Shown here piece after piece: positions 1 through 62,280 of a DNA stretch of 62,425 nt. The stretch is taken from positions 1 to 62,425 of the IMG/VR virus record IMGVR_UViG_3300000208_000001; one strand, given 5' to 3'. Both the position numbers and the translations under genes were made by a program. Numbering within the stretch: position 1 is the first letter of the stretch; each line of letters begins with the position of its first letter. The notes under the pieces were generated by a model. The model was not told the origin of the DNA. It did not search any database and saw nothing but the letters and a program-made list of their open reading frames with translations. This stretch comes from a virus (taxonomy: Duplodnaviria; Caudoviricetes).

Positions 1-58
1 CCAACCGTACCCATAGGCGCTGGCTTCTATCGGCTCCCGCCGCTCCCCCAAGTGGGGA
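1..58. repeat. Left copy of 58-bp terminal direct repeat
   Basis: 1-58 matches 62368-62425 at 56/58 positions (differences at repeat positions 39 and 50). Confidence 0.95.
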
Positions 59-123
59 GTATGCCTGCCGGGTTCATCGGGTTGCCCTCCGCCGGTTCCG
101 TTTTCAACGTCCCTTGCAACTCT

Positions 124-152
124 AGAATAACACCCATGGGGTTGTAGGTCAA
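124..152 (-). promoter_or_regulatory. SigA-type promoter likely driving the leftward operon across the genome junction
   Basis: Minus strand TTGACC-17 bp-TATTCT with extended -10 TG, in an AT-rich patch. Confidence 0.6.
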
Positions 153-1541: not shown

Positions 1542-1942
1542 TTCCGACTAGGGCAATAGTCGGTATTAGACGCCAGATTTCGAGGAGCGGACGCGACCGC
1601 GCCATGCCCACGGGGCGACGACTAGACACGGGCGCGAGGGACGCGCCGCTCCTCGATCTTTCGCCCGCTAGGCGCGATGACAGCGACGACCGGGGATAGA
1701 CGCGAGACCGGGACACCGGGGCGCAGGCTCGACGGCGGCAGGGTCGACCGAGGGGAGCGGGACCGGAGGGCGGTTCTTCTTCCGGCCTGCCTCAGAAATT
1801 CTGGCTTTTTCGGAGGCCCCGGCCCGCCCGAATAGTCCACCTCCCCTGCACGTATGACACACCTTAGCGCCGTGCCTCATCTTTTATGGTGAGCTGGCTC
1901 GTCATCGCCGACGCCTGCACACATACGACAAATTGCAAAAGG

Positions 1943-1967
1943 GCCTCTCCTTCGGGAGGGGCTTTTT
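1943..1967 (+). terminator. Intrinsic terminator
   Basis: GCCTCTCC-TTCG-GGAGGGGC followed by T5. Confidence 0.7.
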
Positions 1968-2017
1968 CTCGTCCTGACAACCGCTCAAGTTTCCCCGCGT
2001 TCGGCGCGCGGGGTTAT

Positions 2018-2056
2018 GGGCGACAGCTTTCTCCCTTGGGCTGTCGCCCTTTCTTT
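2018..2056 (+). terminator. Intrinsic terminator
   Basis: GGGCGACAGC/GCTGTCGCCC stem followed by TTTCTTT. Confidence 0.65.
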
Positions 2057-2098
2057 ATGCCGACAAGGGAGCGAGATCAAGCCAAGGGAGCGATTCGC

Positions 2099-3379
2099 AT
2101 GGAGTTCCACGAAGTTGCCAACGTGTTTCCTCCGATGGGCGAAGAGGAGTATCGCCAACTACTTTCCGATATCGAGAAGAACGGCCTGAGAGAACCCATC
2201 TGGACGTATCAGGGGAAGATTATCGACGGGCGGCATCGCTATAAAGCGTGCGTCGAGCTCGGCATCGAGCCGCGCTTTCGAGAGTGGGACGGAAACGGAT
2301 CGCTTGTGCAGTTTGTAGTGTCTCTCAACCTGCACCGAAGACATTTAACGAGCAGCCAGAAAGCGGTTGTGGCACTTGATATTGAGCGGTTGTTGGCCGA
2401 AGAAGCTAAGGAGCGACAACGTCGTGCGGCGGCAGAGACTAATGCAAAACTGGGGCGTGGTGAGACGCTTCCGCAAAAAATTGCGGGAGCGTCAAGAGGG
2501 GAAGCTAGGGTTCAAGCGGCGGCTATCGTCGGGACCAATCGGCAGTACGTCTCTGACGCGAAACGCATTGCCAAGGAAGCCCCCGAAGTGCTTGAAAGGG
2601 TGCGCGAAGGGCGACTTTGCTTGCCCGAGGCGAAGGCCGTGGCCCGGTTGCCAGAGGAAGACCGTGCGACCGTTTTGCGGAAGATCGAGTCGGGGGAAGC
2701 CAAGACAGTCAAAGAAGCCAAGCGCGCCTTGGCGGCCGAGAAGAAGGCGATCGTGCCGCTGGCGCCAATGTCCGCTACCAACTACCGTTTGATACACGGT
2801 GACTTGGCTCAGGTTCACGCGGAGATTCCGGATAACAGCGTGGATGTGATCATTACCGACCCGCCGTATCTTGAAGAGTGCCTGCATACATATGAGACGC
2901 TGGCAAAGGTAGCCGCCAGGGTGTTGAAACCTGGCGGTTCTTGTTTGGCGATGGTTGGGCATCAGTGGTTGCCGCAGGTGCTGGAACTTATGCGCCCGCA
3001 CCTCGAGTACCACTGGACGCTGGCTTACGTCCAGCCTGGGGCCACGGCCCGGATCTGGAGCAAGAAAATCATCGTGGGCTGGAAACCCGTGCTCTGGTTC
3101 ACCAAGGGCCGATACGATGGTGATTTTGCATACGATGTAGTGAGGTCCGAAGACAGAGACAAGGAGTACCATGAATGGGGCCAGTCCGAGAGTGGCTTTG
3201 CCACGCTCGTTGAGCGTTTCAGCTATCCTGGCGACACCATTCTGGATCCGTTTCTTGGCGGCGGGACAACGGGCGTGGTCGCGTTGCGTTTGGGGCGGCG
3301 CTTCGTTGGCATCGACATTGACGCCACAGCCATTGAAACAACACGACGGCGGTTGGCCGAGATCCAAGGTGTTGCATAA
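2099..3379 (+). CDS. ParB/Srx N-terminal domain fused to an N6-A/N4-C DNA methyltransferase
   Basis: IEKNGLREPI...IIDGRHRY (ParB-like); ITDPPY and LDPFLGGGTT motifs; ATG 2099 with RBS. Confidence 0.85.
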   Translation: MEFHEVANVFPPMGEEEYRQLLSDIEKNGLREPIWTYQGKIIDGRHRYKACVELGIEPRFREWDGNGSLVQFVVSLNLHRRHLTSSQKAVVALDIERLLAEEAKERQRRAAAETNAKLGRGETLPQKIAGASRGEARVQAAAIVGTNRQYVSDAKRIAKEAPEVLERVREGRLCLPEAKAVARLPEEDRATVLRKIESGEAKTVKEAKRALAAEKKAIVPLAPMSATNYRLIHGDLAQVHAEIPDNSVDVIITDPPYLEECLHTYETLAKVAARVLKPGGSCLAMVGHQWLPQVLELMRPHLEYHWTLAYVQPGATARIWSKKIIVGWKPVLWFTKGRYDGDFAYDVVRSEDRDKEYHEWGQSESGFATLVERFSYPGDTILDPFLGGGTTGVVALRLGRRFVGIDIDATAIETTRRRLAEIQGVA

Positions 3380-3960
3380 TGGGTTGGGAACAGCGCCGCG
3401 GCGGCCATGATGCCGTCATGGAAGAATTCGACGCGTGGCTGGCGATGATGGGCTTCCTGGTCTTTGATGGCGGCATAGAAGTCAAACCCGAGCTGGCCGA
3501 ACTTCTGCGAACTCGTTATGACCCCACTTCGCGTATGTTACGCTATCGGCCGGACAGGATCCTGGTGGACGAAGCGGCAGGCAGCTTGTTACTTGAGTAC
3601 AAAACGGAGTCGGGGCGCTATCCCAACTTTGCCATAGAGATTGACTCGTATGCTGCGGCTTGTCAGTGGGCACGAGCAGGGGCGGCGGTGTTCTATATCT
3701 TCCATGCGCCTGGCGTTGTGCGCGCTTGCTGGAGCAACGAGATTCAGTTCGACACCATTTTCGTGCCCGACCGCTGGAGCGAAGATGTTGTGGACAGGAT
3801 GGCGAGGGAGTGGCCCGACAAGAACATCAAGCGTTCAAGATGGGGTGCCGGTGCCAGCGGCACCCCTTACTTCTTGGTGCCGAAAGAGGCACCATATCTC
3901 AAGCCATTACAAGGCTTCATTGAGCACGAAGTCCGTTCCTGCTGTTCGATGGTAGGTTGA
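3379..3960 (+). CDS. Putative PD-(D/E)xK nuclease
   Basis: RPDRILV...LLEYK motif; start overlaps the MTase stop. Confidence 0.5.
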   Translation: MGWEQRRGGHDAVMEEFDAWLAMMGFLVFDGGIEVKPELAELLRTRYDPTSRMLRYRPDRILVDEAAGSLLLEYKTESGRYPNFAIEIDSYAAACQWARAGAAVFYIFHAPGVVRACWSNEIQFDTIFVPDRWSEDVVDRMAREWPDKNIKRSRWGAGASGTPYFLVPKEAPYLKPLQGFIEHEVRSCCSMVG

Positions 3961-4001: not shown

Positions 4002-4799
4002 ATGCCGACCTGGACGCTCTATGAGGGCGACTGCATCGAAGTGATGAAGGGTTTGCCCCAGGATAGTGTCGATGCGGTTGTTACGTCGCCGCCTTACGCG
4101 ATGCAACGGGTGAAGCTATACGGCGGCATTCCAGAAAGCGATTACCCCGCGTGGACAGTCGCATGGATGGAACAAGTGCGCCGCATTTTGAAGCCGCATG
4201 GGAGCGTGCTCATCAACATTCGGGAGCACATTCGCAACGGCGAGATGTCGGACTACGTGCACCGGACCCGTTTGGCGCTGCGTGAGGCGGGGTGGATCGA
4301 ATGCGATGAGTTGATTTGGGTGAAGCCTGACGCGCCTCCTGTTGGACACCCTGGCCGTCCACGCCGCTCGTGGGAACGCATTTTGTGGTTTGCGAAGGAA
4401 AGACGACCCTGGTGCGACCCTAAAGCAAATGGCATACCTTCAAAGTGGATCGGCGCGAATACCAGGAGCAAAGCGTGGCTCAAGTGGCTCAGTGGAAATG
4501 CCGAGTATTCGGAGGGTATCGCCCGATGCCGGGACTTGGTTTCTCTTCCAGTATGCGAAACTGACTCCCGCGGCCATCCCGCGGCATACCCTCGTGACTT
4601 GGCCGCTTGGATGATCCGCCTCGTGACGCCACCCGGAGGCACAGTCCTCGACCCCTTCGCAGGCTCCGGCACAACCCTCCTGGCAGCGATCCAGGAGGGT
4701 TTTTCGTGTATCGGGATCGAGCGTGAGCCGGAGTATTGCGAGATCATCCGTCGCCGGATGGCGGAGGTTCAACCCGCCCTGCCGTTGGAGGTGTCATAG
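4002..4799 (+). CDS. Beta-class DNA methyltransferase (N4-C/N6-A)
   Basis: GDCIEVM, VTSPPY, HPAAYP and VLDPFAGSGTT motifs. Confidence 0.9.
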   Translation: MPTWTLYEGDCIEVMKGLPQDSVDAVVTSPPYAMQRVKLYGGIPESDYPAWTVAWMEQVRRILKPHGSVLINIREHIRNGEMSDYVHRTRLALREAGWIECDELIWVKPDAPPVGHPGRPRRSWERILWFAKERRPWCDPKANGIPSKWIGANTRSKAWLKWLSGNAEYSEGIARCRDLVSLPVCETDSRGHPAAYPRDLAAWMIRLVTPPGGTVLDPFAGSGTTLLAAIQEGFSCIGIEREPEYCEIIRRRMAEVQPALPLEVS

Positions 4800-6109: not shown

Positions 6110-8719
6110 ATGCCAAGCGTCAAGCTCGACAAGCCCATCCCGATCAACCCGGCTAAGAACATCGGCAGGCCGCCGAAGCCTTCTACGATCATCCGCTATT
6201 ACCAGGCGAACCCCGACAAGTGGCTGGAGAACGCCTTCGGCGTGCAGCTTTGGGAGAAACAGCGCGAGATTCTGCACGACGTATGGAACAACCGTTACGT
6301 GGCGGTGCGGTCATGCTATGCAAGCGGGAAATGCCTAGCCGAAGACGAACTGGTCATGCTGTTGGACGGAACCATGGTCGAGGCTCGCGATCTGGTTGGC
6401 AGGCAATTCGACGTTTTAGCTTTCGACGAGAGGACCAAATCTCTGGTGCCGGCGAGAGCGTTTGCCACGGACAATGGTCACGAGGACGTGTGGAGGGTAA
6501 CGACGGCAAGCGGTCGTTCCGTAGTTAGAACGGGCAACCACCCGTTCTACGCAGTTCCTTATCGCAAGAACTCATATATCAGCGGAACTCGAAGTGAACC
6601 CTGCGGCGAACCTGTTTGGGTGAAGGTCAACGATTTGAAAAAGAACCACGCGATTCTGGCTCCCAAATCTCTTCCGGTTCTTGCCGTGGACCGGCAACCC
6701 GAAGATCACGTCAAGTTGGCTGCTTATCTTCTCGGCGACGGCGGTTTGACCACACCAACCATGACGTTTACACAGATGCCAGGGCCCGTCCTGGATGAGT
6801 TCTTGGAGATCGTCAAACGTTTGGGTTGTGAGACCATCCCCGTCACAAGCAATGAGCTGGGGCTGCGCATCGCGGGACGGAAAAAGGAGAATGGGGAACG
6901 ATACGCAGCACAGCATCATACGAACTGGATCTTGAATCTGGCACGCGAATGGGGCATTTGGGGGAAACGAGCCAACGAGAAGCGGTTCCCGTCTTGGGTT
7001 TGGAGACTGCCAGACGACCAAATGGCGTTGTTTTTGAATCGGTTGTTCGCCTGCGACGGATGGGCGTATGCGAGAGAAAGAGACCTCTCTAGGCCCAAGA
7101 CAGGCCACTTCACACAGATTGGGATCGCTTTGGCGTCGAAGGGAATGATCCAAGACATTGCTTGGGCGATGTGGCGGCTAGGCATTTGGGGTGTTGTTCG
7201 GCATCGCAAAGTGGCTGGCAAGTACGATGCTTGGGAGTGGTCCTGCAATCGGGCGGAGGACATCGTACGTTTCGCGGAGGTTGTTAGCATCTTCGGCAAG
7301 GAGCAAGCTCTTGAACACTGTGTTTGCGCTGCGACAAAGAAGAAGCAGAGAACCCGGTGGCTCGATCATCACGCTCCTGATGGCTTCGTTTGGGACCCGG
7401 TTAAGAAGGTCGAATTTGTAGGCAAGCGCCGGACTGTGTGCATCACGGTGCCGGGTTACGAAACGTTTGTGACCATGTTGGTTGAACACAACAGTTTCCT
7501 CGCTGCAAGCGCGGCGATGGCGTGGTCGCACCTCTTCAAAGACAGCATCGTTCTGACGACGGCCCGCTCGTTCCGGCAGGTTCGGGCCAACGTCTGGCAG
7601 GTGATCCATCAGCTCAAAGAACAGGCGCGCATCCCATTGGGTTCGGAGTTCTTGCAAACAGAGATTCGTCTTGGACCGGGATGGTACGCTCTTGGCTTTG
7701 CGACGGACGACCCTGGCACGATCCAGGGTATTCACGCGAAGTCGGGCCGTATCCTCATCATCGTGGACGAGTCGGCTGAGGTGGACGCCGCGATTCACGA
7801 ACGCCTGCTTGCGCTCATGACATCGGAGCACGCCCACATCCTGCATATCGGGAACCCCCTGGAGGTCGGCACCGTCTTCCACAGCTACTTCTCCGACCCC
7901 AAGTACGTGACGCATCGGATCAGCGCGTTCGATACGCCGAACGTCAAAGAGGGCCGGGAAGTCATCCCTGGTCTCGTCTCCAAGCAGTGGGTGGAGGAAC
8001 GCCGCCAGGAATGGGGCGAGGACAGCCCGCTTTGGTACTCGCAGGTGTTGGGCGAGTTCCCGCCGACCGGGAACGACACGCTCATTCCGCTCTCTTGGGT
8101 GCGGGCGGCGCAGGAGCGGTGGCATGACATGGCTCCAAGTGGCCGGGAAGTGGCGGGCGTGGACATTTCGAGGTACGGAAACGCCGAGAGTGTTTGCTGC
8201 ATCATTTCGGGCCGCTTCGTGCATCCGCTCAAAACATGGTCGCAGGCGTCCACGTCGGAGTCTGTCGGTTACATCCGCACCTACGCCGCGGGAGCGAAGA
8301 TCATCCGCATTGACGACATTGGCGTAGGCGGAGGCGTGGTGGACCAGGCGCGCCAGGAAGGCTTGCCGGTGGTCGGCGTCAACGTTCAGGTGAAGTCGTC
8401 GAAGCCCGATAAGTTCTTCAACCTGCGGTCGGAGCTGTACTGGAACCTGCGGGAGTTGCTAAACCCCGAGAATCCGAATGCGCTGGCGCTGCCGCCGGAC
8501 GATAAGTTGGCGGCGCAGTTGAGTTCGATCCGGTACAAAATTATCGACAGCGGCGGTCGCATCCAGGTTGAATCCAAGGATCAAATGAGGAGCCGCGGTT
8601 TGAAAAGTCCCGACCGCGCGGATGCCTTGTGTCTTGCGGCGGCAGGGACGATAGCAGGAGGTTTGACAGTCGCGCCGGTGATGATTGGTGTCGGGAGTTC
8701 CTATTGGAGCCAACTTTGA
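6110..8719 (+). CDS. terL: Terminase large subunit containing an intein
   Basis: Walker A SCYASGK/S, Walker B IIVDES, GNP coupling motif, nuclease domain AGVDIS...SPDRADA. Confidence 0.95.
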   Translation: MPSVKLDKPIPINPAKNIGRPPKPSTIIRYYQANPDKWLENAFGVQLWEKQREILHDVWNNRYVAVRSCYASGKCLAEDELVMLLDGTMVEARDLVGRQFDVLAFDERTKSLVPARAFATDNGHEDVWRVTTASGRSVVRTGNHPFYAVPYRKNSYISGTRSEPCGEPVWVKVNDLKKNHAILAPKSLPVLAVDRQPEDHVKLAAYLLGDGGLTTPTMTFTQMPGPVLDEFLEIVKRLGCETIPVTSNELGLRIAGRKKENGERYAAQHHTNWILNLAREWGIWGKRANEKRFPSWVWRLPDDQMALFLNRLFACDGWAYARERDLSRPKTGHFTQIGIALASKGMIQDIAWAMWRLGIWGVVRHRKVAGKYDAWEWSCNRAEDIVRFAEVVSIFGKEQALEHCVCAATKKKQRTRWLDHHAPDGFVWDPVKKVEFVGKRRTVCITVPGYETFVTMLVEHNSFLAASAAMAWSHLFKDSIVLTTARSFRQVRANVWQVIHQLKEQARIPLGSEFLQTEIRLGPGWYALGFATDDPGTIQGIHAKSGRILIIVDESAEVDAAIHERLLALMTSEHAHILHIGNPLEVGTVFHSYFSDPKYVTHRISAFDTPNVKEGREVIPGLVSKQWVEERRQEWGEDSPLWYSQVLGEFPPTGNDTLIPLSWVRAAQERWHDMAPSGREVAGVDISRYGNAESVCCIISGRFVHPLKTWSQASTSESVGYIRTYAAGAKIIRIDDIGVGGGVVDQARQEGLPVVGVNVQVKSSKPDKFFNLRSELYWNLRELLNPENPNALALPPDDKLAAQLSSIRYKIIDSGGRIQVESKDQMRSRGLKSPDRADALCLAAAGTIAGGLTVAPVMIGVGSSYWSQL
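6332..7492 (+). mobile_element. 387-aa intein with LAGLIDADG homing endonuclease
   Basis: Begins CLAEDELV, block B TGNHPF, LAGLIDADG-like AYLLGDG and NRLFACDG, ends VEHN/S. Confidence 0.92.
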
Positions 8720-30776: not shown

Positions 30777-30927
30777 TTCGCTAATAGGGTTCCCAATGAT
30801 CGCCGCCGCTCCTCACGGGGCGGCTTTTTCGCGCAAAACGCAAGCCCCCCGGACCATGCTCCGGAGGCTACGCGCTTTCGCCCGCCTCGGCGGGCTTTTT
30901 TCATGCCATCAGCGGGGGCGTGATTCG

Positions 30928-35887: not shown

Positions 35888-37387
35888 TTATACGTTTATC
35901 CTCGCCCATCGTGCGGGCAGTCGGCTCGTCGCAGGCGGCAGATGCGGGTCGGTCCAATGGATCGCCACGTCCTCACCCGCCACCACGAGACGCTTCGCGA
36001 GGATGCGGATTCCCTCCCGCTTCTCCTCGACGGTCATCGCGTTCCAGTTGGACGCCACATTCCGCATCAGCGCCCGCGTGACCTCCGGCGAGGTGGCGCG
36101 GGCGTCCTCTTCGGCTTGCTCCAGGCGACGCATCTCGGCCTCTATCTGCTGTCTCTCGCGGTTAAGTTGGGCTAAACGTGGCCTGATGGTGGCGGCAAGT
36201 TCGCCCTCCTCCAGCGCCGTCACGAGGTTGTCGATGCGCCGCAGGATGCTCGACCTCTGCCCTTCGAGCCGTGCGAGGGTGTCTGCTGCGGACGGCCGCG
36301 CCTTCGCGTGGGCTGCGCGCGCCTTCTCTGCGGCCGTCCAGAATGATGGCGTGTCCACGACGCGTTGGAGTTGGGCGAGAAACACAAACTCTAGCGCCTC
36401 ATGTCGTACCGGACGCTGATCGCAGCGATGGTCGACGTGGCGACGGTCGCAACGGTAGTACATGCGATACGGTTCATTGGGGCCGCCGCCTCCCGATCCG
36501 GCGAGGCGCATGGCGTTCTCGCACCGGCCGCATACCACGAGGCGCGAGAACAGGTGCCCGCTGCGGTTCCGGGGGCCAGTCCCCAGGGTGTTGCGCTTTC
36601 GAACCTCTACAGCCCTCCAGAACGCCTCCTCGTCAATGATCGCCTCGTGGTCCCCGGGCGCGATGATCCAGTCGTCCATCTTCTCGACGGAGATGTGATT
36701 GCTGCCCCGACGTTTCGTATAGGCGATTTTGCCGGTGTAGGTGGGATTGAGGAGGATGCGCCGCACCCGGTTCGCGGACATCCCCACTCTGCGGGCAATC
36801 GCAACGTCGCCGTATTGCCCGGTGAGGTAGAGCCGAAATATCTCCCGTACCACATCGGCCTCCTCGGGCACGACCACGAGGCGGGCGTTGGCACGTTCTC
36901 CGACTTTGCGATAACCGAACGGCGGCTCCCATCCGAGGTAGCGCCCGCCCGCCGCGAGGCGCCTCTTGCCTTCGGTCGACCGTTCGGCGATCAACTCTCG
37001 CTCGAAATTCGCAAAGTCAATGAGGATGTTGCGGAGGAGCCGCCCGGTGGGAGACGACGTGTCGATGTTCTGAGTCACACTTACGATAGCGACGCCCTTC
37101 GACTCCAACTCGTCGGCCAGCTCGTGGAAGTCCCGCACCGAGCGCGTGAGGCGGTCGAGTTTGTAGACTAGGACGGCCTGGAAACGGCCCCGCTTCGCAT
37201 CCTCCATCATGCGCTGAAACGCAGGGCGGTCGGTGGTGCTACCCGAGAGTCCTGCGTCTTCGTAGCGTTCGACGACCTCCCAGCCTTGAGAAGCGGCATA
37301 GGCGCGCAGGCGCTCCTCCTGAAGTTGGAGGGAGATGCCATCTACTTGCACGGAGGATGAGACGCGAAGGTAGATGCAGACGTTCAT
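35888..37387 (-). CDS. Large serine integrase
   Basis: YLRVSS, EDAGLSG, KLDRLTRS, PPFGY, NPTYTG, HEAII, Zn-ribbon and coiled coil. Confidence 0.95.
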   Translation of the reverse strand: MNVCIYLRVSSSVQVDGISLQLQEERLRAYAASQGWEVVERYEDAGLSGSTTDRPAFQRMMEDAKRGRFQAVLVYKLDRLTRSVRDFHELADELESKGVAIVSVTQNIDTSSPTGRLLRNILIDFANFERELIAERSTEGKRRLAAGGRYLGWEPPFGYRKVGERANARLVVVPEEADVVREIFRLYLTGQYGDVAIARRVGMSANRVRRILLNPTYTGKIAYTKRRGSNHISVEKMDDWIIAPGDHEAIIDEEAFWRAVEVRKRNTLGTGPRNRSGHLFSRLVVCGRCENAMRLAGSGGGGPNEPYRMYYRCDRRHVDHRCDQRPVRHEALEFVFLAQLQRVVDTPSFWTAAEKARAAHAKARPSAADTLARLEGQRSSILRRIDNLVTALEEGELAATIRPRLAQLNRERQQIEAEMRRLEQAEEDARATSPEVTRALMRNVASNWNAMTVEEKREGIRILAKRLVVAGEDVAIHWTDPHLPPATSRLPARWARINV

Positions 37388-57759: not shown

Positions 57760-57852
57760 CTAACTGAACGCATAACGCAGCGCCGCCGCCACCAACCGGA
57801 ACACGATCACGGCGACGATGGCCTGCACGATGTACGCCCGTATCACCTTCAC
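57760..57852 (-). CDS. 30-aa membrane peptide
   Basis: Coupled GTG start; hydrophobic. Confidence 0.35.
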   Translation of the reverse strand: MKVIRAYIVQAIVAVIVFRLVAAALRYAFS

Positions 57853-58166
57853 GGAGCGCCCGCCTCCTCGCGCTCGACGTGGCGATAGGCGGCGGTCATG
57901 TAGACCTTGTTGGCACTGGTGCCGCGCTCGCCGGCGAGGCGCTTCACGGCTTTGTGAAGGTCGACCGGGAGCCACAGTTTGCGCCGCGTGAGCTTGCCCT
58001 CGTATGTCGGCGTCGGATCGGCCGCGCCGTCTGCGATGTACCGCTCAACGGCGAAGCACAGCTCGCCGGTGAACTCACGCCAGTTGCGCTTCGCCAAGCG
58101 GTCCATGCGGTCGAACAGTTCTTGGGGGAATCGTATATCGAATTGGGTTTGTCCTGGCCTAGTCAC
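57849..58166 (-). CDS. Tandem ribbon-helix-helix regulator
   Basis: QFDIRFPQELFDRMDRLA and KLWLPVDLHKAVKRLAGERGTSAN. Confidence 0.7.
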   Translation of the reverse strand: MTRPGQTQFDIRFPQELFDRMDRLAKRNWREFTGELCFAVERYIADGAADPTPTYEGKLTRRKLWLPVDLHKAVKRLAGERGTSANKVYMTAAYRHVEREEAGAP

Positions 58167-58761
58167 GGGGAACGTCCTTCCGTGCGTCTCTGTTTCTCTC
58201 GTACATGAACACAGAATCATGCAGCCCCCACCATTGAGGAATGCGTACTTCGCGGACGAGCCTCCATCCCGTTTCAATCAAGTCGAAGAAGCGGTCATTC
58301 GCACAACAGCCCCCGCACCATTCGCCGATATAGACGAGTCGTTCTCCACGGTAAGCTAGGAGCGCCCTTTCCGCCATCTCGTCGTCGTATGGCGGCCAGC
58401 ACAGGAATAGTGTGCGGTCACTATGTTCGCTTGCCTTCTCCGGCCCGCCTATGGCAACGGGGAAGTACAGATTCGCATCGCACCATCGGTTCCGACCGGG
58501 CGCAATATCATAGGCGACGAGATCGGCACCTTTGAGTGTGAGCAGATAAGCCCAATAACCAGTTCCCGCACCGATTTCGACTATAGGCGACCATTCAGCA
58601 ATTGCATTAAGCGCCTCATCGTTCGGAATCGCCCATGCGTAGCGTTTCACGAGTTCTCGGCGAGCTGCGAAGGCGTCGATATTCGACGACGGCAAGCGCC
58701 AAGAATCGGCGGATATGATGTCCGGGTCGACCTTGAGCGCCTCCTCAAGCAAGGGGTTCAC
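58159..58761 (-). CDS. Class I SAM-dependent methyltransferase-like protein
   Basis: YAWAIP...IVEIGAGTGYW...LFLCWPPY. Confidence 0.75.
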   Translation of the reverse strand: MNPLLEEALKVDPDIISADSWRLPSSNIDAFAARRELVKRYAWAIPNDEALNAIAEWSPIVEIGAGTGYWAYLLTLKGADLVAYDIAPGRNRWCDANLYFPVAIGGPEKASEHSDRTLFLCWPPYDDEMAERALLAYRGERLVYIGEWCGGCCANDRFFDLIETGWRLVREVRIPQWWGLHDSVFMYERNRDARKDVPRD

Positions 58762-59800
58762 GGCGTTCCTCCTTTCTCGGTTTCACGCTTCGGACGGTCG
58801 GCGCGATGTCATCCAGGTCGCCGACGTTTACCGGGATCGGCGGGAGCCAGTGGAGCACGACGCGGCGTTTCGCCGGTTCGCTCCTCGGCCCCGTCCAATA
58901 GGCGTGCCAATGGGCGCATCGGATATGCGGTCTTGGCGATCTGCGGTCCGTCGTCTCGCCTTCGTCGGACGAACGCCGCCGTTCGTTCTCGGCCCGTCGC
59001 AGCGCCGCCCCAATGCGAAAGCCTGTCTGCCACACCGTGGGCTGATCAGGCGGGAAGATGCGCGGGCCGCGCTTCGTCCGCACAGGACGAGGGTATGTGG
59101 GGCGGCGGTCGCCGATGTACTCGGCCGCCGTCGAACATAGATAGAGCACGAGCGAGACGAGTGGAGTGACATAGGGCACCATTTGGCCAGGGGCGGTGAA
59201 CGCCTCCGGCGGAATCTCCATCCCCGCGCGCTCGGCCTGCCTGTTTGCCTCCTCCGCCATCGCCGCGAGCGATGCGGCGACATCGCCCGACATGTGGAGG
59301 GGGAGCGGTAGAAGGTCATCGAGGTCATCGCCGAAGTCGAGCAGGAAGCGCAGCTCGATCCGCCTGTCGTTCGCATCATGTTCGAGATGGGCGAAGAAGC
59401 CATGTAATGGGTCTGCCCCGAACATGTATCCCGGCGTCTCGATGTAAACGCACCACTCCGGCAGGCGCAGGATAATGTCCACTGGCAGGTCGCCTTCAAC
59501 GGGCGTTCCGCGCAATGCACGGTATAGGTCTGGGTCGAAGCGGTAGATTCCCTGGGTGACACGCCACGCCGCCAGTGCCGCCACTCGGGCGATGTCCTCA
59601 ATTTCGGGATCAAGCGGCGAAAGCATCCGCCCCCGGCTCACGATGGCATATGCGCCAGCCGCAGGAAGGAAACACCACTCGGGCCAGTCCGGGAGTCTCG
59701 TGCCCCGGTCGGCGCGCATCTCGTCGACCAGGCGCCATGCGTCCGGGTAGCGGCGCGACATGGCAATAAGGTGGCGCTTGGGACGGGGGATGTCAGACAC
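58745..59800 (-). CDS. acrVA2: AcrVA2/FinQ-family anti-CRISPR-like protein
   Basis: AWRVTQGIY, LPEWCVY, LYLC, RPHIRCAHWHAYWTG and WLPPIPVN match AcrVA2 family blocks as recalled. Confidence 0.75.
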   Translation of the reverse strand: MSDIPRPKRHLIAMSRRYPDAWRLVDEMRADRGTRLPDWPEWCFLPAAGAYAIVSRGRMLSPLDPEIEDIARVAALAAWRVTQGIYRFDPDLYRALRGTPVEGDLPVDIILRLPEWCVYIETPGYMFGADPLHGFFAHLEHDANDRRIELRFLLDFGDDLDDLLPLPLHMSGDVAASLAAMAEEANRQAERAGMEIPPEAFTAPGQMVPYVTPLVSLVLYLCSTAAEYIGDRRPTYPRPVRTKRGPRIFPPDQPTVWQTGFRIGAALRRAENERRRSSDEGETTDRRSPRPHIRCAHWHAYWTGPRSEPAKRRVVLHWLPPIPVNVGDLDDIAPTVRSVKPRKEERREPLA

Positions 59801-59839
59801 GGGATCACTCCTTCCGTGCCGATCATGCCGAACACAATG

Positions 59840-59890
59840 TCAGTTTTCGTCGGGCATCATCACCGTGATGACGGGCTCTAGGTTGTCACC
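59840..59890 (-). pseudogene. 3' relic of a DUF6573-like gene
   Basis: GDNLEPVITVMMPDEN* with no upstream gene body. Confidence 0.45.
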
Positions 59891-59968
59891 GGTCGATGTG
59901 TCGCGGAGGGTCCGCGGCGTGGTACAATAGCCGAGGACCCTCCGGGTTTCGCAGGCCGTCTCCTCCCC

Positions 59969-60463
59969 TCATGCCGTGAAGCGCCTCACAGCGACGATAC
60001 GCCCCGCGTCGTCGCGGATCGCAGACTCCGGCCCGGTGTCAGGAGCCACCACGTCTACGCGGCCTGAGCCGCGTAGAGCCGCAAGAACGAGCGCGGACAC
60101 GATGTACACGGTATCGCGTTCTGGATCGGGTAACCCCTCGACAGCCCCATACGTCTGTCGGACAGTGGGGACTCCGTGGGGCGTGTCAACGGGTTCTGTA
60201 ACAGTCGTCACCCGAGCGACAGTACCAGACGGCGGCACGGTGAGCTCATAGCCGTCGAATCGAATCGTCACCGCGTGGGGCGTCAGGTTGATGAAGCGGG
60301 TGTACCACCGTGTAATGTGGCTCGCGCCGTCGTCAAACGCCCCCAAACCGCCCTCGTACTCGGCCAGCGGACCGGCGTAGACAACCACCGGCCCGTGATC
60401 CTCGCCATGAGGACCATAAGCGTGGGCCTCGCGAGTCACAACACCATAGCCTTCCAGTTTCAT
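59969..60463 (-). CDS. Conserved phage hypothetical protein
   Basis: INLTPH...PPSGTVARV...GLP...YIVS motif; AGGAGG RBS. Confidence 0.7.
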   Translation of the reverse strand: MKLEGYGVVTREAHAYGPHGEDHGPVVVYAGPLAEYEGGLGAFDDGASHITRWYTRFINLTPHAVTIRFDGYELTVPPSGTVARVTTVTEPVDTPHGVPTVRQTYGAVEGLPDPERDTVYIVSALVLAALRGSGRVDVVAPDTGPESAIRDDAGRIVAVRRFTA

Positions 60464-60507
60464 CGCGCGCACCTCCTGTTGTGTTTGCGCCGCTCTTCGT
60501 CGGTGGC

Positions 60508-61059
60508 TCAGACCTCCACGGGGAGGTCCGGGTCCACCGGCTCGGACTCGGTGGGACGATGATCCTCCGGCCATGAGAACACTGGCCGCCCGTTCTCATC
60601 CCACTCCATGACCACTGGCACCAACCAGGCCGCGTACAAGAGCGGCGATTCCGGCCACTCGGAGCCGATCAAGCCGTAGTCGCGGGCGCACCGCAGGATG
60701 CCGCGCAATAGCGGCAGCGTAGAAGGCACCGGTTCGCACACCCAGTCCGCCCAGGGGCCATCCCAGCCTAGCAGGCTCCCCTCGAACGGACGACCATCGC
60801 GTCCGATGGCCTCCGTGGCTTGCCCCACTGCCTCTTCGGACAGTCCCACAAGCAGGATCTTGCGGTAGTTGGCGGCGACGATGACGCCTTCCGGCGCGAT
60901 CGGCGCGATCTGCTCATATGCCACCCCGCGCCGGGAGGCGTAAGGTGAGCACTGCCGGGACAGCGTCACCTTCACATACCCGTTTGCCAGCACCAAGTCG
61001 GTGCTGGAATTAAGACTTTCCAATGCCCCCTGCAAGTATCGAAAATCCACTTCGCGCAC
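60508..61059 (-). CDS. Hypothetical protein
   Basis: GGAGGGG RBS and GTG start. Confidence 0.55.
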   Translation of the reverse strand: MREVDFRYLQGALESLNSSTDLVLANGYVKVTLSRQCSPYASRRGVAYEQIAPIAPEGVIVAANYRKILLVGLSEEAVGQATEAIGRDGRPFEGSLLGWDGPWADWVCEPVPSTLPLLRGILRCARDYGLIGSEWPESPLLYAAWLVPVVMEWDENGRPVFSWPEDHRPTESEPVDPDLPVEV

Positions 61060-61164
61060 TGACGTCCCCTCCCTGTGGATGTTGTGCCGCTCTTCGCCAC
61101 GCCTGTCGGCGTGCCCACCCCGCGCCACGTGGAGGCGGCGGCTGTGCGGGGCATAACGCGGGGA

Positions 61165-61527
61165 TCACTCCCCGCAGGTATGACCGAACCGCTCCCGCAG
61201 GAACTCTGCGACGGCCCGCGGCGTCCACTCGGACGGATCGGAAGCGCCAGGGCCAATAGCGCGCTCCAGGTCGTCGGCAACCATCTCGAACCGGGCGCCA
61301 CAGTAGGCGCACCACAGCGGGCGGCGCACCATGTGCCACCCGTGGCGGATCACGGCTTCAGCCATTTCGTCCAACTCCTCCTGCGTCAGTGAGCACTCAC
61401 CGAACATCGCCTCGATGTTCTCGACCGTGAAATATGCGCGCACCTGCGCTTCCGACTGGAACAGATCGCCCGCATCGAAATTGGTGGCCTCGTGAATCCG
61501 CTCCCGCGTCCATGCCATGTGTGTCAT
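61165..61527 (-). CDS. Small acidic hypothetical protein
   Basis: GAGGAGG RBS. Confidence 0.65.
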   Translation of the reverse strand: MTHMAWTRERIHEATNFDAGDLFQSEAQVRAYFTVENIEAMFGECSLTQEELDEMAEAVIRHGWHMVRRPLWCAYCGARFEMVADDLERAIGPGASDPSEWTPRAVAEFLRERFGHTCGE

Positions 61528-61566
61528 CCTCCTCTGCCGCTCCCGGCGGCGTGGTGTGTGCGGTCT

Positions 61567-61626
61567 CCCGCGACCCTGGCGATGCCAGGGTTTCGGCCGC
61601 GGACCAGGCGGCCATCGTCAGGCGGG
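61567..61626 (-). ncRNA. Type I hammerhead ribozyme
   Basis: Minus strand CCCGC-CUGACGA-U-GGCCGC(CUGGUCC)GCGGCC-GAAAC-CCUGGC(AUC)GCCAGG-GUC^GCGGG: complete core and three fully paired stems. Confidence 0.9.
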
Positions 61627-61830
61627 CTGCAGGTCGATCAAATGCGCTACCTGCTCGATCCTGCACAGGTAGCGCCCGCACCTCCGGCCCTTGTTGGGGC
61701 CGGCAACTTCGACCACGTTCGTAACCGGCGCCCAATACACGTCGCCGTTCGGGTAGGCGAAAACCTCCATCCTGCCCCCTTCGAGACTCTCGCTGTACCC
61801 GAGGTGACCCAGGGACTTTTGGGTGTGCAT
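61618..61830 (-). CDS. 70-aa hypothetical protein
   Basis: AGGAGG RBS; its stop codon is the UGA of the ribozyme core. Confidence 0.65.
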   Translation of the reverse strand: MHTQKSLGHLGYSESLEGGRMEVFAYPNGDVYWAPVTNVVEVAGPNKGRRCGRYLCRIEQVAHLIDLQPA

Positions 61831-61964
61831 GTTGGCATCCTCCTTTTCGTGTACCTGTATTCGGGCTGCGCCCTTGAGCGTAGCGGGGGAGGGGATGGAC
61901 CTCCCCCGGCCCAGACCTTCCCAGGGCTGTACCTAGCGGACGTATTCGAGGACCGGCGGACTCG

Positions 61965-62210
61965 TCAGGCGGGGGCGGGCACGGCGGGTCCGACGAGGTA
62001 CCATCCGTGCCGGGTCTCGGCGACCATCGCGGTGTCGATCCATGCCAGAGCGTGCATCGCCCGGATCGCCGCCGTCAGTATGGCATCATCCTCCGCAGTG
62101 TGTCGATGCCGCCGCCCGAGGATGTGCTCGACATGCGCCCAGGTGAGCTGCACTGCCTCATGCTCGATCCCTCGATGGTCTGTGTACGTCGTCGTGAGCA
62201 GGTCGCTCAT
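61965..62210 (-). CDS. 81-aa hypothetical protein
   Basis: GAGGAGG RBS. Confidence 0.65.
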   Translation of the reverse strand: MSDLLTTTYTDHRGIEHEAVQLTWAHVEHILGRRHRHTAEDDAILTAAIRAMHALAWIDTAMVAETRHGWYLVGPAVPAPA

Positions 62211-62226
62211 CGTGTATCCTCCTCTC

Positions 62227-62280
62227 GGGTTTCGGCGGCCTTACCGCCATCATCAGCAGGGCTGTAGCTCCCTGGACCCC
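62227..62280 (-). ncRNA. Type III hammerhead ribozyme
   Basis: Minus strand GGGGUC^CAGGG(AGCUACAG)CCCUG-CUGAUGA-U-GGCGG(UAAGG)CCGCC-GAAACCC. Confidence 0.85.

Follow-up and report, generated by a model that had tools for sequence, protein, structure and literature searches.

To our knowledge, the AcrVA2/FinQ family provides the only proteins known to silence one chosen gene through its nascent peptide, and the targets of nearly all of its members are unknown. Here we describe one such member and its genetic surroundings in a tailed-phage genome, the IMG/VR virus record IMGVR_UViG_3300000208_000001 (62,425 bases, one whole virus record; this whole stretch of DNA is called the window below). 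Its gene lies in a minus-strand array at the right end of the window, together with genes for a Crn4-like ring nuclease, a methyltransferase-fold (MTase-like) protein, a probable ribbon-helix-helix (RHH) protein and a tyrosine recombinase, and with candidate self-cleaving ribozymes between the genes located further upstream.

In the available text of a preprint on the family, around 1,800 AcrVA2 orthologues are reported on mobile elements, "typically in the absence of Cas12a", and substitutions W79A and D89A weaken the activity of AcrVA2 while H286A, R288A and H291A largely abolish it (bioRxiv 10.1101/2022.11.29.518452). The Unk01 proteins, renamed Crn4, cut cA3, cA4 and cA6, with His15 and Arg112 being essential in Crn4a; as far as the accessible part of the corresponding report goes, copies occur in 11 of 28,137 phage genomes, and N-terminal extensions are present in some of the orthologues from phages and plasmids (bioRxiv 10.1101/2025.07.17.665281). 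Ribozyme-flanked gene arrays of prophages are also already known: according to the portion available of PMC3088659, hammerheads flank single genes near integrases, including the anti-restriction gene ardA. Our literature search yielded no paper linking such arrays to anti-CRISPR genes.

A first-pass annotation of the window, made from the sequence alone, had proposed an anti-defence island in which an AcrVA2-like anti-CRISPR is accompanied by MTase-like and RHH partners. All of its open reading frames (ORFs) are present on the minus strand at the places given. In our assessment, the locus is rather probably the cargo array of a temperate phage, in which the AcrVA2/FinQ-family protein silences a single target, the MTase-like gene is an independent piece of cargo and the transcript is cut by ribozymes.

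AcrVA2/FinQ-family protein and its cargo array

The protein matched PHROG 6160 over residues 14-326 (E=3.2e-54), and its sole PDB sequence match at E<=10 was the AcrVA2 chain 7ci1_A (phmmer E=3.6e-18), residues 70-328 aligning with residues 71-320 of the 323 of that chain. A predicted model built on 58 relatives (predicted local distance difference test, pLDDT, 90.2) matched across its whole length only three AcrVA2 chains in Foldseek (E=6.8e-17 to 8e-15, 343-347 columns, template-modelling (TM) scores of 0.59-0.70), with 7ci2_A at E=6.8e-17 (TM 0.59/0.66), the next match at E=0.16, and an identity to AcrVA2 in the fold alignment of 22-23%. Genes annotated as finQ in plasmids of E. coli, Salmonella and Shigella matched residues 73-332 by tblastn (E=1e-12); in total 542 plasmid records matched, and 22 of the 25 listed bore the finQ annotation. 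No match was obtained in Pfam, NCBIfam or PADLOC, in the case of Pfam because the PF26125 model was not in the set searched; the precomputed label PF26125.1 was found on all 120 listed relatives. Profile, sequence and structural comparisons thus bear out the family assignment made in the first pass, and the protein is a genuine full-length member of the AcrVA2/FinQ family. It is also an ordinary new one in a large family already described, for which a word-indexed search (8000 candidates scored) returned 1305 relatives at E<=0.001.

The residues known to affect AcrVA2 function are kept. W79, D89, H286, R288 and H291 of AcrVA2 align with W79, D89, H292, R294 and H297 here (5/5), and W79, H292, R294 and H297 were invariant in the 58 relatives, with D89 present in 51 of them. 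The C-terminal motif (residues 291-299) was also correctly read in the first-pass annotation as P-H-I-R-C-A-H-W-H versus PHIRRGHWH in AcrVA2. By homology, the protein would most likely bind the N-terminal nascent peptide of a single, specific target, leading to loss of the target mRNA, a loss in which the conserved His292, Arg294 and His297 would be used.

From the literature it is plausible that this target need not be Cas12a, with Cas12a itself possible but unlikely. The protein could be a true anti-Cas12a anti-CRISPR acting exactly as AcrVA2 on a type V-A system of the host, in keeping with the shared family, fold and functional residues and with its position adjoining another anti-CRISPR-family gene, the Crn4-like one. 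However, identity to AcrVA2 is just 22-23%, and the occurrence of orthologues typically without Cas12a, together with the divergence of their N-terminal parts in the available text of the same report (bioRxiv 10.1101/2022.11.29.518452), makes such an activity improbable. It could also serve competition between mobile elements in the manner of FinQ, silencing a gene that belongs to a competing phage or plasmid, for instance in superinfection exclusion by a lysogen. FinQ, the second member studied, lowers the tra mRNA of a rival plasmid in the part of its description available, finQ-annotated genes match the protein at the E-value given above, and expression from the prophage is possible in a temperate phage with a serine integrase. 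Nevertheless, its neighbours resemble counter-defence families (Crn4-like here, ArdC-like in a relative) and not exclusion systems, so that, although it is a serious alternative, we hold this role to be rather unlikely.

The variation of the array was deduced from three related loci, named L019, L020 and L022. In L019 the order is o81, o183, two small ORFs, the RHH gene (42% identical), the peptide and the recombinase gene (82%), without Crn4-like, AcrVA2-like or MTase-like genes; in L020, o183 is followed by four other ORFs and then by a Crn4-like gene without the N-terminal extension; and in L022 an AcrVA2-like gene (75%) runs directly into the RHH (30%) and recombinase (79%) genes. Because these loci keep backbone genes while the genes between them differ, o81, o183, the RHH gene, the 30-aa membrane peptide and the recombinase constitute the backbone of the array, and the genes between o183 and the RHH gene are interchangeable cargo. 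In the window, this variable slot would hold three independent cargo genes, namely the Crn4b-like, the AcrVA2/FinQ-family and the class I methyltransferase genes, within an accessory array of at least ten genes in a temperate tailed-phage genome. No conserved partner of the AcrVA2-like gene was detected in 15 AcrVA2-like loci, where none of the eight other island proteins matched (0/8), and in a second locus set island-protein matches appeared only in L022 (RHH, recombinase), in the identical L031 and, as a distant integrase, in L027 and L028. As a side observation, the contig of L019 ends (8450-8545) in a long perfect hairpin that is a reverse copy of the recombinase 3' end and is probably an assembly artefact.

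The Crn4-like protein matched the PADLOC model "Unk_01, sometimes fused to CARF" (E=5.2e-19) and, in the PDB, Crn4b 9r7b (E=3.9e-8), Crn4a 9sma (E=7.2e-5) and 9qs9 (E=0.0027). Its I-N-L-T-P-H stretch aligns with L-I-N-L-T-P-H of Crn4b and its I-R-D with V-R-D, the Thr, the catalytic His and the Arg being kept. Such an enzyme would degrade the cyclic oligoadenylate alarm signals of type III CRISPR systems, possibly also the cA3 of cyclic-oligonucleotide-based anti-phage signalling systems (CBASS). The relative search returned no locus with a Crn4-like gene in viral contigs. Moreover, near the head of the L019 cargo array (2117-2992, plus strand) is a gene whose 291-aa product carries the N-terminal domain of ArdC (25.4 bits vs a Pfam cut-off of 22.6) and has a weak zincin peptidase match. 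The anti-defence island proposed in the first pass gains support from this ArdC-like gene and from the Crn4b-like neighbour. When the ArdC-like protein was compared with the minus-strand ORF 188-964 of the window, no similarity was seen.

Candidate ribozymes between the upstream cargo genes

Candidate hammerhead and HDV-like (hepatitis delta virus-like) ribozymes separate the upstream cargo genes. The HDV-like candidate in the gap between o117 and o183 aligned at full length with RF00094 (41.8 bits; E=0.0014 in 6.9 kb and 0.012 in the whole window) and shows P1 with a G-U at the cleavage site, P1.1, P2, P3, P4 and the C in J4/2; the P2 pseudoknot, with five pairs, is present and is not scored by the RF00094 model. 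Related copies were located at 4509-4582 and at around 5907-6000 in L019, one of them upstream of o183, and at 7602-7671 and 8102-8182 in L020, and these HDV-like candidates each directly precede the ribosome-binding site of a cargo gene. In an alignment of four sequences with 20 pairs, 98.7% of the 79 cells pair, compared to 30-53% when the partners are slid, and one change on both sides of a pair was found in each of P1, P2, P3 and P4. As an additional observation, the 3' part of the element and its leader (61072-61096) are repeated with 80% identity at 60475-60499, just upstream of the Crn4-like gene, where no full ribozyme is present.

In the gap between o70 and o117, a type I hammerhead candidate was found with a descriptor comprising the core C-U-G-A-N-G-A, G-A-A, an A15.1-U16.1 pair, H17 and three stems; its core CUGA contains the UGA stop of o70. 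The descriptor produced six matches, one in the window, three in L019 (1048-1105, 1599-1656 and 1969-2028) and two in L020 (6533-6591 and 6940-6999); neither the 39 other loci nor 50 shuffles yielded any. These copies share stem I and the core and differ in stems II and III, five of the six have one extra base between the core and stem II, and in stem III two pairs differ from an L019 copy with pairing kept. A third class is represented in L019 by twister-sister matches above the gathering score at 331-405, 692-769 and 3724-3795, of which the gap between o81 and o70 in the window holds a decayed relative with no Rfam match. Further hammerhead-like remnants were noticed by eye upstream of o81 (around 62226-62260) and in the hairpin region at 59904-59957.

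Contigs were used throughout for the depth and edge data from runs X1-X3 and from the RNA runs; joints with sides of only 21 letters, such as that of 57941 to 60510 in X1 and X2, were left out of account. In the DNA run X3, other contigs cease matching the window at 61152/61153 and at 61626, which are the predicted 5' edges of the two ribozymes. Summed contig depth reached 1090 at 61093-61283, where the HDV-like element lies, compared to 2.7-94 in the remaining 29 bins. Loose contig ends fall at 61145, 61152, 61153 and 61626, and the ribozyme sequences were common to many other contigs of this metagenome at >=90%.

On this basis, the self-cleaving ribozymes would cut the long array transcript into gene-length mRNAs. 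We propose only tentatively, and with some doubt, that in this phage lineage they mark the borders of exchangeable counter-defence cassettes, both freeing gene-length mRNAs with a protected end and serving as swap sites, and that the target of the AcrVA2-like protein is a defence protein other than Cas12a.

Several observations weigh against the reading of the locus as a ribozyme-cut array of anti-defence cargo. The HDV-like candidate does not reach the Rfam gathering score of 50, and three of its four both-sided changes come from a single sequence (L020 8102) in an alignment of four. The hammerhead descriptor requires pairing, so that the pairing of its matches is partly by construction, and the Rfam hammerhead models gave no match here, not even at E<=10 in the 481 bases searched. 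Five RNA-library contigs were identical to the window without differences, one of them over 61617-61854 (o70), and they cover parts of the Crn4-like gene, o183 and o70 only, with only diverged pieces over the AcrVA2-like gene; they may represent DNA carry-over and not transcripts. As for the cargo, the first-pass annotation had taken the ORFs at 59969-62210 as unknown candidates for new anti-defence proteins, and not all of them are unknowns, the one at 59969-60463 being Crn4-like; o81, o70, o117 and o183 found no match in the family libraries Pfam, PHROG, NCBIfam and PADLOC (and o183 none in the PDB or the Atlas either). Because these four match nothing, the view of the whole array as anti-defence is carried by two genes here and by one of a relative. 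Concerning the AcrVA2-like protein itself, Cys295 occurs only in this sequence among the 58 aligned relatives, 52 of which have Arg, and experimental data in the family are limited to AcrVA2, AcrVA2.1 and FinQ, the last of which targets a rival plasmid and not a defence system, in the available text of the preprint (bioRxiv 10.1101/2022.11.29.518452).

With a family that already counts well over 1000 relatives, a further AcrVA2-like member adds little by itself. More useful is its setting, in which the gene stands alone as cargo in a defined slot, next to a ring nuclease of the Crn4 type, and this phage could serve in the search for a target other than Cas12a. The ribozyme-separated cargo adds two anti-CRISPR-family genes, and the ArdC-like gene of a relative, to the older ardA example, and together these cases sharpen a testable idea on the purpose of self-cleaving ribozymes in bacteria and phages. 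If ribozymes do border exchangeable cassettes, their presence on the flanks would point in general to new anti-defence genes, with o81, o70, o117 and o183 as four such unknowns.

Methyltransferase, RHH and recombinase genes within the phage genome

The model of the MTase-like protein (pLDDT 92.8) matched only class I S-adenosylmethionine (SAM) methyltransferases, with 470 PDB matches at E<=0.001, nearly all of those listed being methyltransferases; these fold matches are generic (TM <=0.49), with no close structural relative. No curated family threshold was reached, the Methyltransf_23 score being 18.4 bits against a cut-off of 27 and the NCBIfam matches (E>=0.009) falling far under their cut-offs. 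Among 56 sequences, E62-x-G-A-G-x-G68, D85 after strand 2 and C121-W122 were invariant, and P123-P124 nearly so. Motif IV of amino-methyltransferases acting on DNA, RNA or protein reads D/N/S-P-P-Y/F. The family has C-W-P-P-Y, with no Asp, Asn or Ser before P-P-Y, and the protein was not classed as a DNA methyltransferase.

The first-pass annotation was thus right about the methyltransferase fold and about the overlap with the AcrVA2-like gene, which is 17 nt long. Its role as a partner did not hold, because L022 runs its 75%-identical AcrVA2-like gene straight into the RHH and recombinase genes without an MTase-like gene. In a survey of 37 other loci with an AcrVA2-like gene, the MTase-like gene was absent from all 36 non-identical ones (15 + 21, several of them redundant copies of one element) and was present only in L031, a 100%-identical piece of the same phage from another assembly. 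The MTase-like gene is therefore one more cargo gene.

The same data bear on the idea that the AcrVA2-like protein, the MTase-like protein as its working partner and the RHH protein as a dedicated anti-CRISPR-associated (Aca) repressor form a single functional unit. In its favour, head-to-tail overlaps of 17 nt and 8 nt link the three genes and suggest translational coupling, the RHH gene follows the cargo in the manner of aca genes, and L031 has the same order. Nonetheless, the missing MTase-like gene beside the 36 non-identical loci, the direct AcrVA2-like-RHH-recombinase order of L022, the at least 1075 relatives that the MTase-like family has of its own, including ones in haloarchaeal viruses and jumbo phages, and the presence of the RHH and recombinase genes without an AcrVA2-like gene in L019 all make a single unit very hard to sustain.

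The overlap between the MTase-like and RHH genes noted in the first pass exists, although its length depends on the start, being 119 nt only for the longest RHH ORF (57849-58277) and 8 nt for the likelier gene, the 105-aa version beginning with the GTG at 58166. The tandem RHH structure stood in part. The first motif gave weak Arc-like matches (PHROG E=4e-5 to 8e-4; Arc repressor chains E=0.025-0.1), and the second half is indicated by a beta-alpha-alpha pattern in three orthologues and by one weak match to phrog_9151 (E=0.009); BLASTP detected no similarity between the two halves of the protein.

Placement of the RHH gene is Aca-like, downstream of variable cargo and conserved beside changing cargo in L019 and L022, with weak support for the DNA-binding domain. 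It keeps company, however, with the tyrosine recombinase rather than the AcrVA2-like gene, since L019 has it and the recombinase without the latter. It is a real possibility, if short of a probable one, that the RHH protein has no control over the cargo and forms a module with the recombinase, in which it would be a directionality or regulatory factor, or else acts as an antitoxin-like partner of the 30-aa peptide. In L019 the RHH, peptide and recombinase genes are kept as a group, as are the RHH and recombinase genes in L022, while the upstream cargo changes; moreover, the peptide ORF overlaps the RHH stop, and the match at E=0.009 is to a HicB-like antitoxin family. On the other hand, acr-aca operons classically show this layout too, with a conserved regulator gene behind cargo that varies, and no operator was found for either role. 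The protein would fit either an Aca-like repressor or a recombinase-linked factor.

The gap upstream of the AcrVA2-like gene lies between the genes punctuated by ribozymes and the AcrVA2-like sub-operon with its tight coupling; no sigma-70 promoter was found in it. Its palindrome (59857-59871) was considered as an operator and rejected, as it occurs once in the window but has matches also in 20 of 100 shuffles; it was not seen upstream of the L022 AcrVA2-like gene.

As for the recombinase, the XerC model matched it at E=2.1e-40, under its cut-off. It might act in dimer resolution or serve the cargo region. An integron-like arrangement was examined and rejected: the integron-integrase model matches only residues 253-313 (55.7 bits vs a cut-off of 265), the recombinase lies downstream of the array and is co-directional with it, and the repeated elements in the gaps proved to be candidate ribozymes. 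The phage has a second recombinase, the large serine integrase at 35888-37387 (minus strand).

Apart from this integrase, the window encodes a terminase, a Mu gp29-like portal, a major capsid protein, a tail protein and a primase-helicase; a transfer RNA scan of the whole record found no such genes. The record is classed as linear and about 78% complete. Its ends are most likely joined, because its last 58 bases repeat positions 1-58 (56 of 58 matching) and because the L019 contig runs across the junction, a match to window 112-68 sitting there upstream of a match to window 61939-61864. The genome would thus probably be nearly complete, circularly joined and about 62,367 bases long. As the minus-strand array runs off the right end and the ends overlap, its upstream region is therefore window 59 onward. 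Two overlapping divergent sigma-70-like promoter sites were found there in an AT-richer stretch (2 found vs 0.2 expected), at 124-152 (minus strand), as the first-pass annotation had it, and at 101-128 (plus strand). The former lies upstream of the array only because the record ends overlap, and would drive the cargo array across the junction; the 45 nt just downstream of it (window 112-68) are 91% identical in L019. All refined gene starts in the array are preceded by strong AGGAGG-like sites.

A Bacillota host is only hinted at by the portal, whose three named relatives among the 120 listed are two from Alicyclobacillus and one from a Clostridia bacterium (3/3, 44-50% identity), and the capsid matches are divided among phages of Arthrobacter, Roseobacter and others at about 40%. 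At the DNA level, no relatives were found among deposited phages except for one methyltransferase stretch of 113 nt. Elsewhere in the window, a 497-aa protein with ParB-like and DNA-methyltransferase matches is encoded near the packaging genes (1886-3379, plus strand) and may have a separate anti-restriction function, and a below-threshold Rfam match to the anti-hemB small RNA occurs at 30800-30904 (plus strand; 30.7 bits vs 49.5, E=0.0031 in the whole window).

Table 1. Features of the accessory array and of the record end, in window coordinates.
Feature	Start	End	Strand	Remarks
XerC/D-like tyrosine recombinase, 319 aa, last gene of the array	56785	57744	-	Pfam Phage_integrase E=2.4e-22
30-aa hydrophobic peptide ORF	57760	57852	-	GTG overlaps RHH stop (GTGA); 45%-identical peptide at the same place in L019
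Probable tandem ribbon-helix-helix DNA-binding protein, 105 aa	57849	58166	-	GTG at 58166 behind GGAAGGA; 8-nt overlap with MTase stop
Class I SAM-methyltransferase-fold protein, 200 aa	58159	58761	-	PHROG 19090 E=3.7e-46; 17-nt overlap with AcrVA2-like gene
AcrVA2/FinQ-family protein, 351 aa	58745	59800	-	GTG start behind GGAAGGAG; PHROG 6160, PDB 7ci1, fold 7ci2_A, FinQ genes
168-nt gap	59801	59968	-	Hairpin with 15-bp arms at 59904-59944; 15-bp palindrome at 59857-59871
Crn4b-like ring nuclease, 164 aa	59969	60463	-	ATG behind AGGAGG; 55-aa N-terminal extension
o183, protein without known relatives	60508	61059	-	64-65% identical in L019 and L020; anchor upstream of the variable slot
HDV-like ribozyme candidate	61083	61154	-	o117/o183 gap; predicted cleavage between 61153 and 61152
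o117	61165	61518	-	ORF with ribosome-binding site; no significant family or PDB match
Type I hammerhead ribozyme candidate	61567	61626	-	o70/o117 gap; predicted cleavage after the C at 61572
o70	61618	61830	-	ORF with ribosome-binding site
Decayed twister-sister-like remnant	61860	61942	-	o81/o70 gap; 76% identical to L019 twister-sister copies
o81	61965	62210	-	52% identical in L019; ribosome-binding site
Terminal overlap	62368	62425	.	56/58 bases shared with window 1-58; array upstream continues at 59, including the promoter-like site 152-124 (-)

Comparison with known systems

The closest counterpart of the protein is AcrVA2 of a Moraxella bovoculi prophage (PDB 7CI1/7CI2). Both have a similar length (351 aa here vs 322) and align over the whole fold with TM up to 0.70, W79, D89 and the C-terminal H-x-R-x-x-H are kept here, and both are on a temperate phage beside another anti-CRISPR-family gene. 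They differ in sequence, with 22-23% identity and a Cys here in place of the second Arg of the motif, and in their setting, since the host here is possibly Gram-positive and without a known link to Cas12a. The neighbours also differ, AcrVA1 being that of AcrVA2 in the available text of the preprint (bioRxiv 10.1101/2022.11.29.518452), compared to Crn4-like, methyltransferase, RHH and recombinase genes here. With FinQ, found on IncI and F-like plasmids, the protein shares the family (E=1e-12) and the condition of single-gene cargo of a mobile element. Identity is about 25%, however, and FinQ is on conjugative plasmids of Enterobacteria and, in the part of its description available, acts on the transfer genes of a rival plasmid.

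The Crn4-like protein compares with the phage and plasmid Crn4b orthologues proposed as anti-CRISPRs in the accessible part of the Crn4 report (bioRxiv 10.1101/2025.07.17.665281), as it keeps the Thr, His and Arg and carries an N-terminal extension. This extension is of 55 aa in contrast to the 60-80 aa stated there, and the L020 copy has none.

In the acr-aca operons, as here, variable cargo lies upstream of a conserved gene for a small DNA-binding protein in one transcription unit. Most known Aca proteins are of the helix-turn-helix type, whereas the regulator here is of the RHH type and is followed by a recombinase.

Finally, the array resembles the hammerhead-flanked arrays of prophages, such as the ardA array of Agrobacterium tumefaciens, as described in the portion available of PMC3088659: ribozymes flank single genes that vary between relatives, an integrase-family gene is located beside the array, and the cargo includes counter-defence genes. 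Unlike those arrays, this lineage mixes three ribozyme classes (hammerhead and HDV-like here, twister-sister in L019), several of its gaps hold decayed remnants, and its cargo includes anti-CRISPR-family genes.

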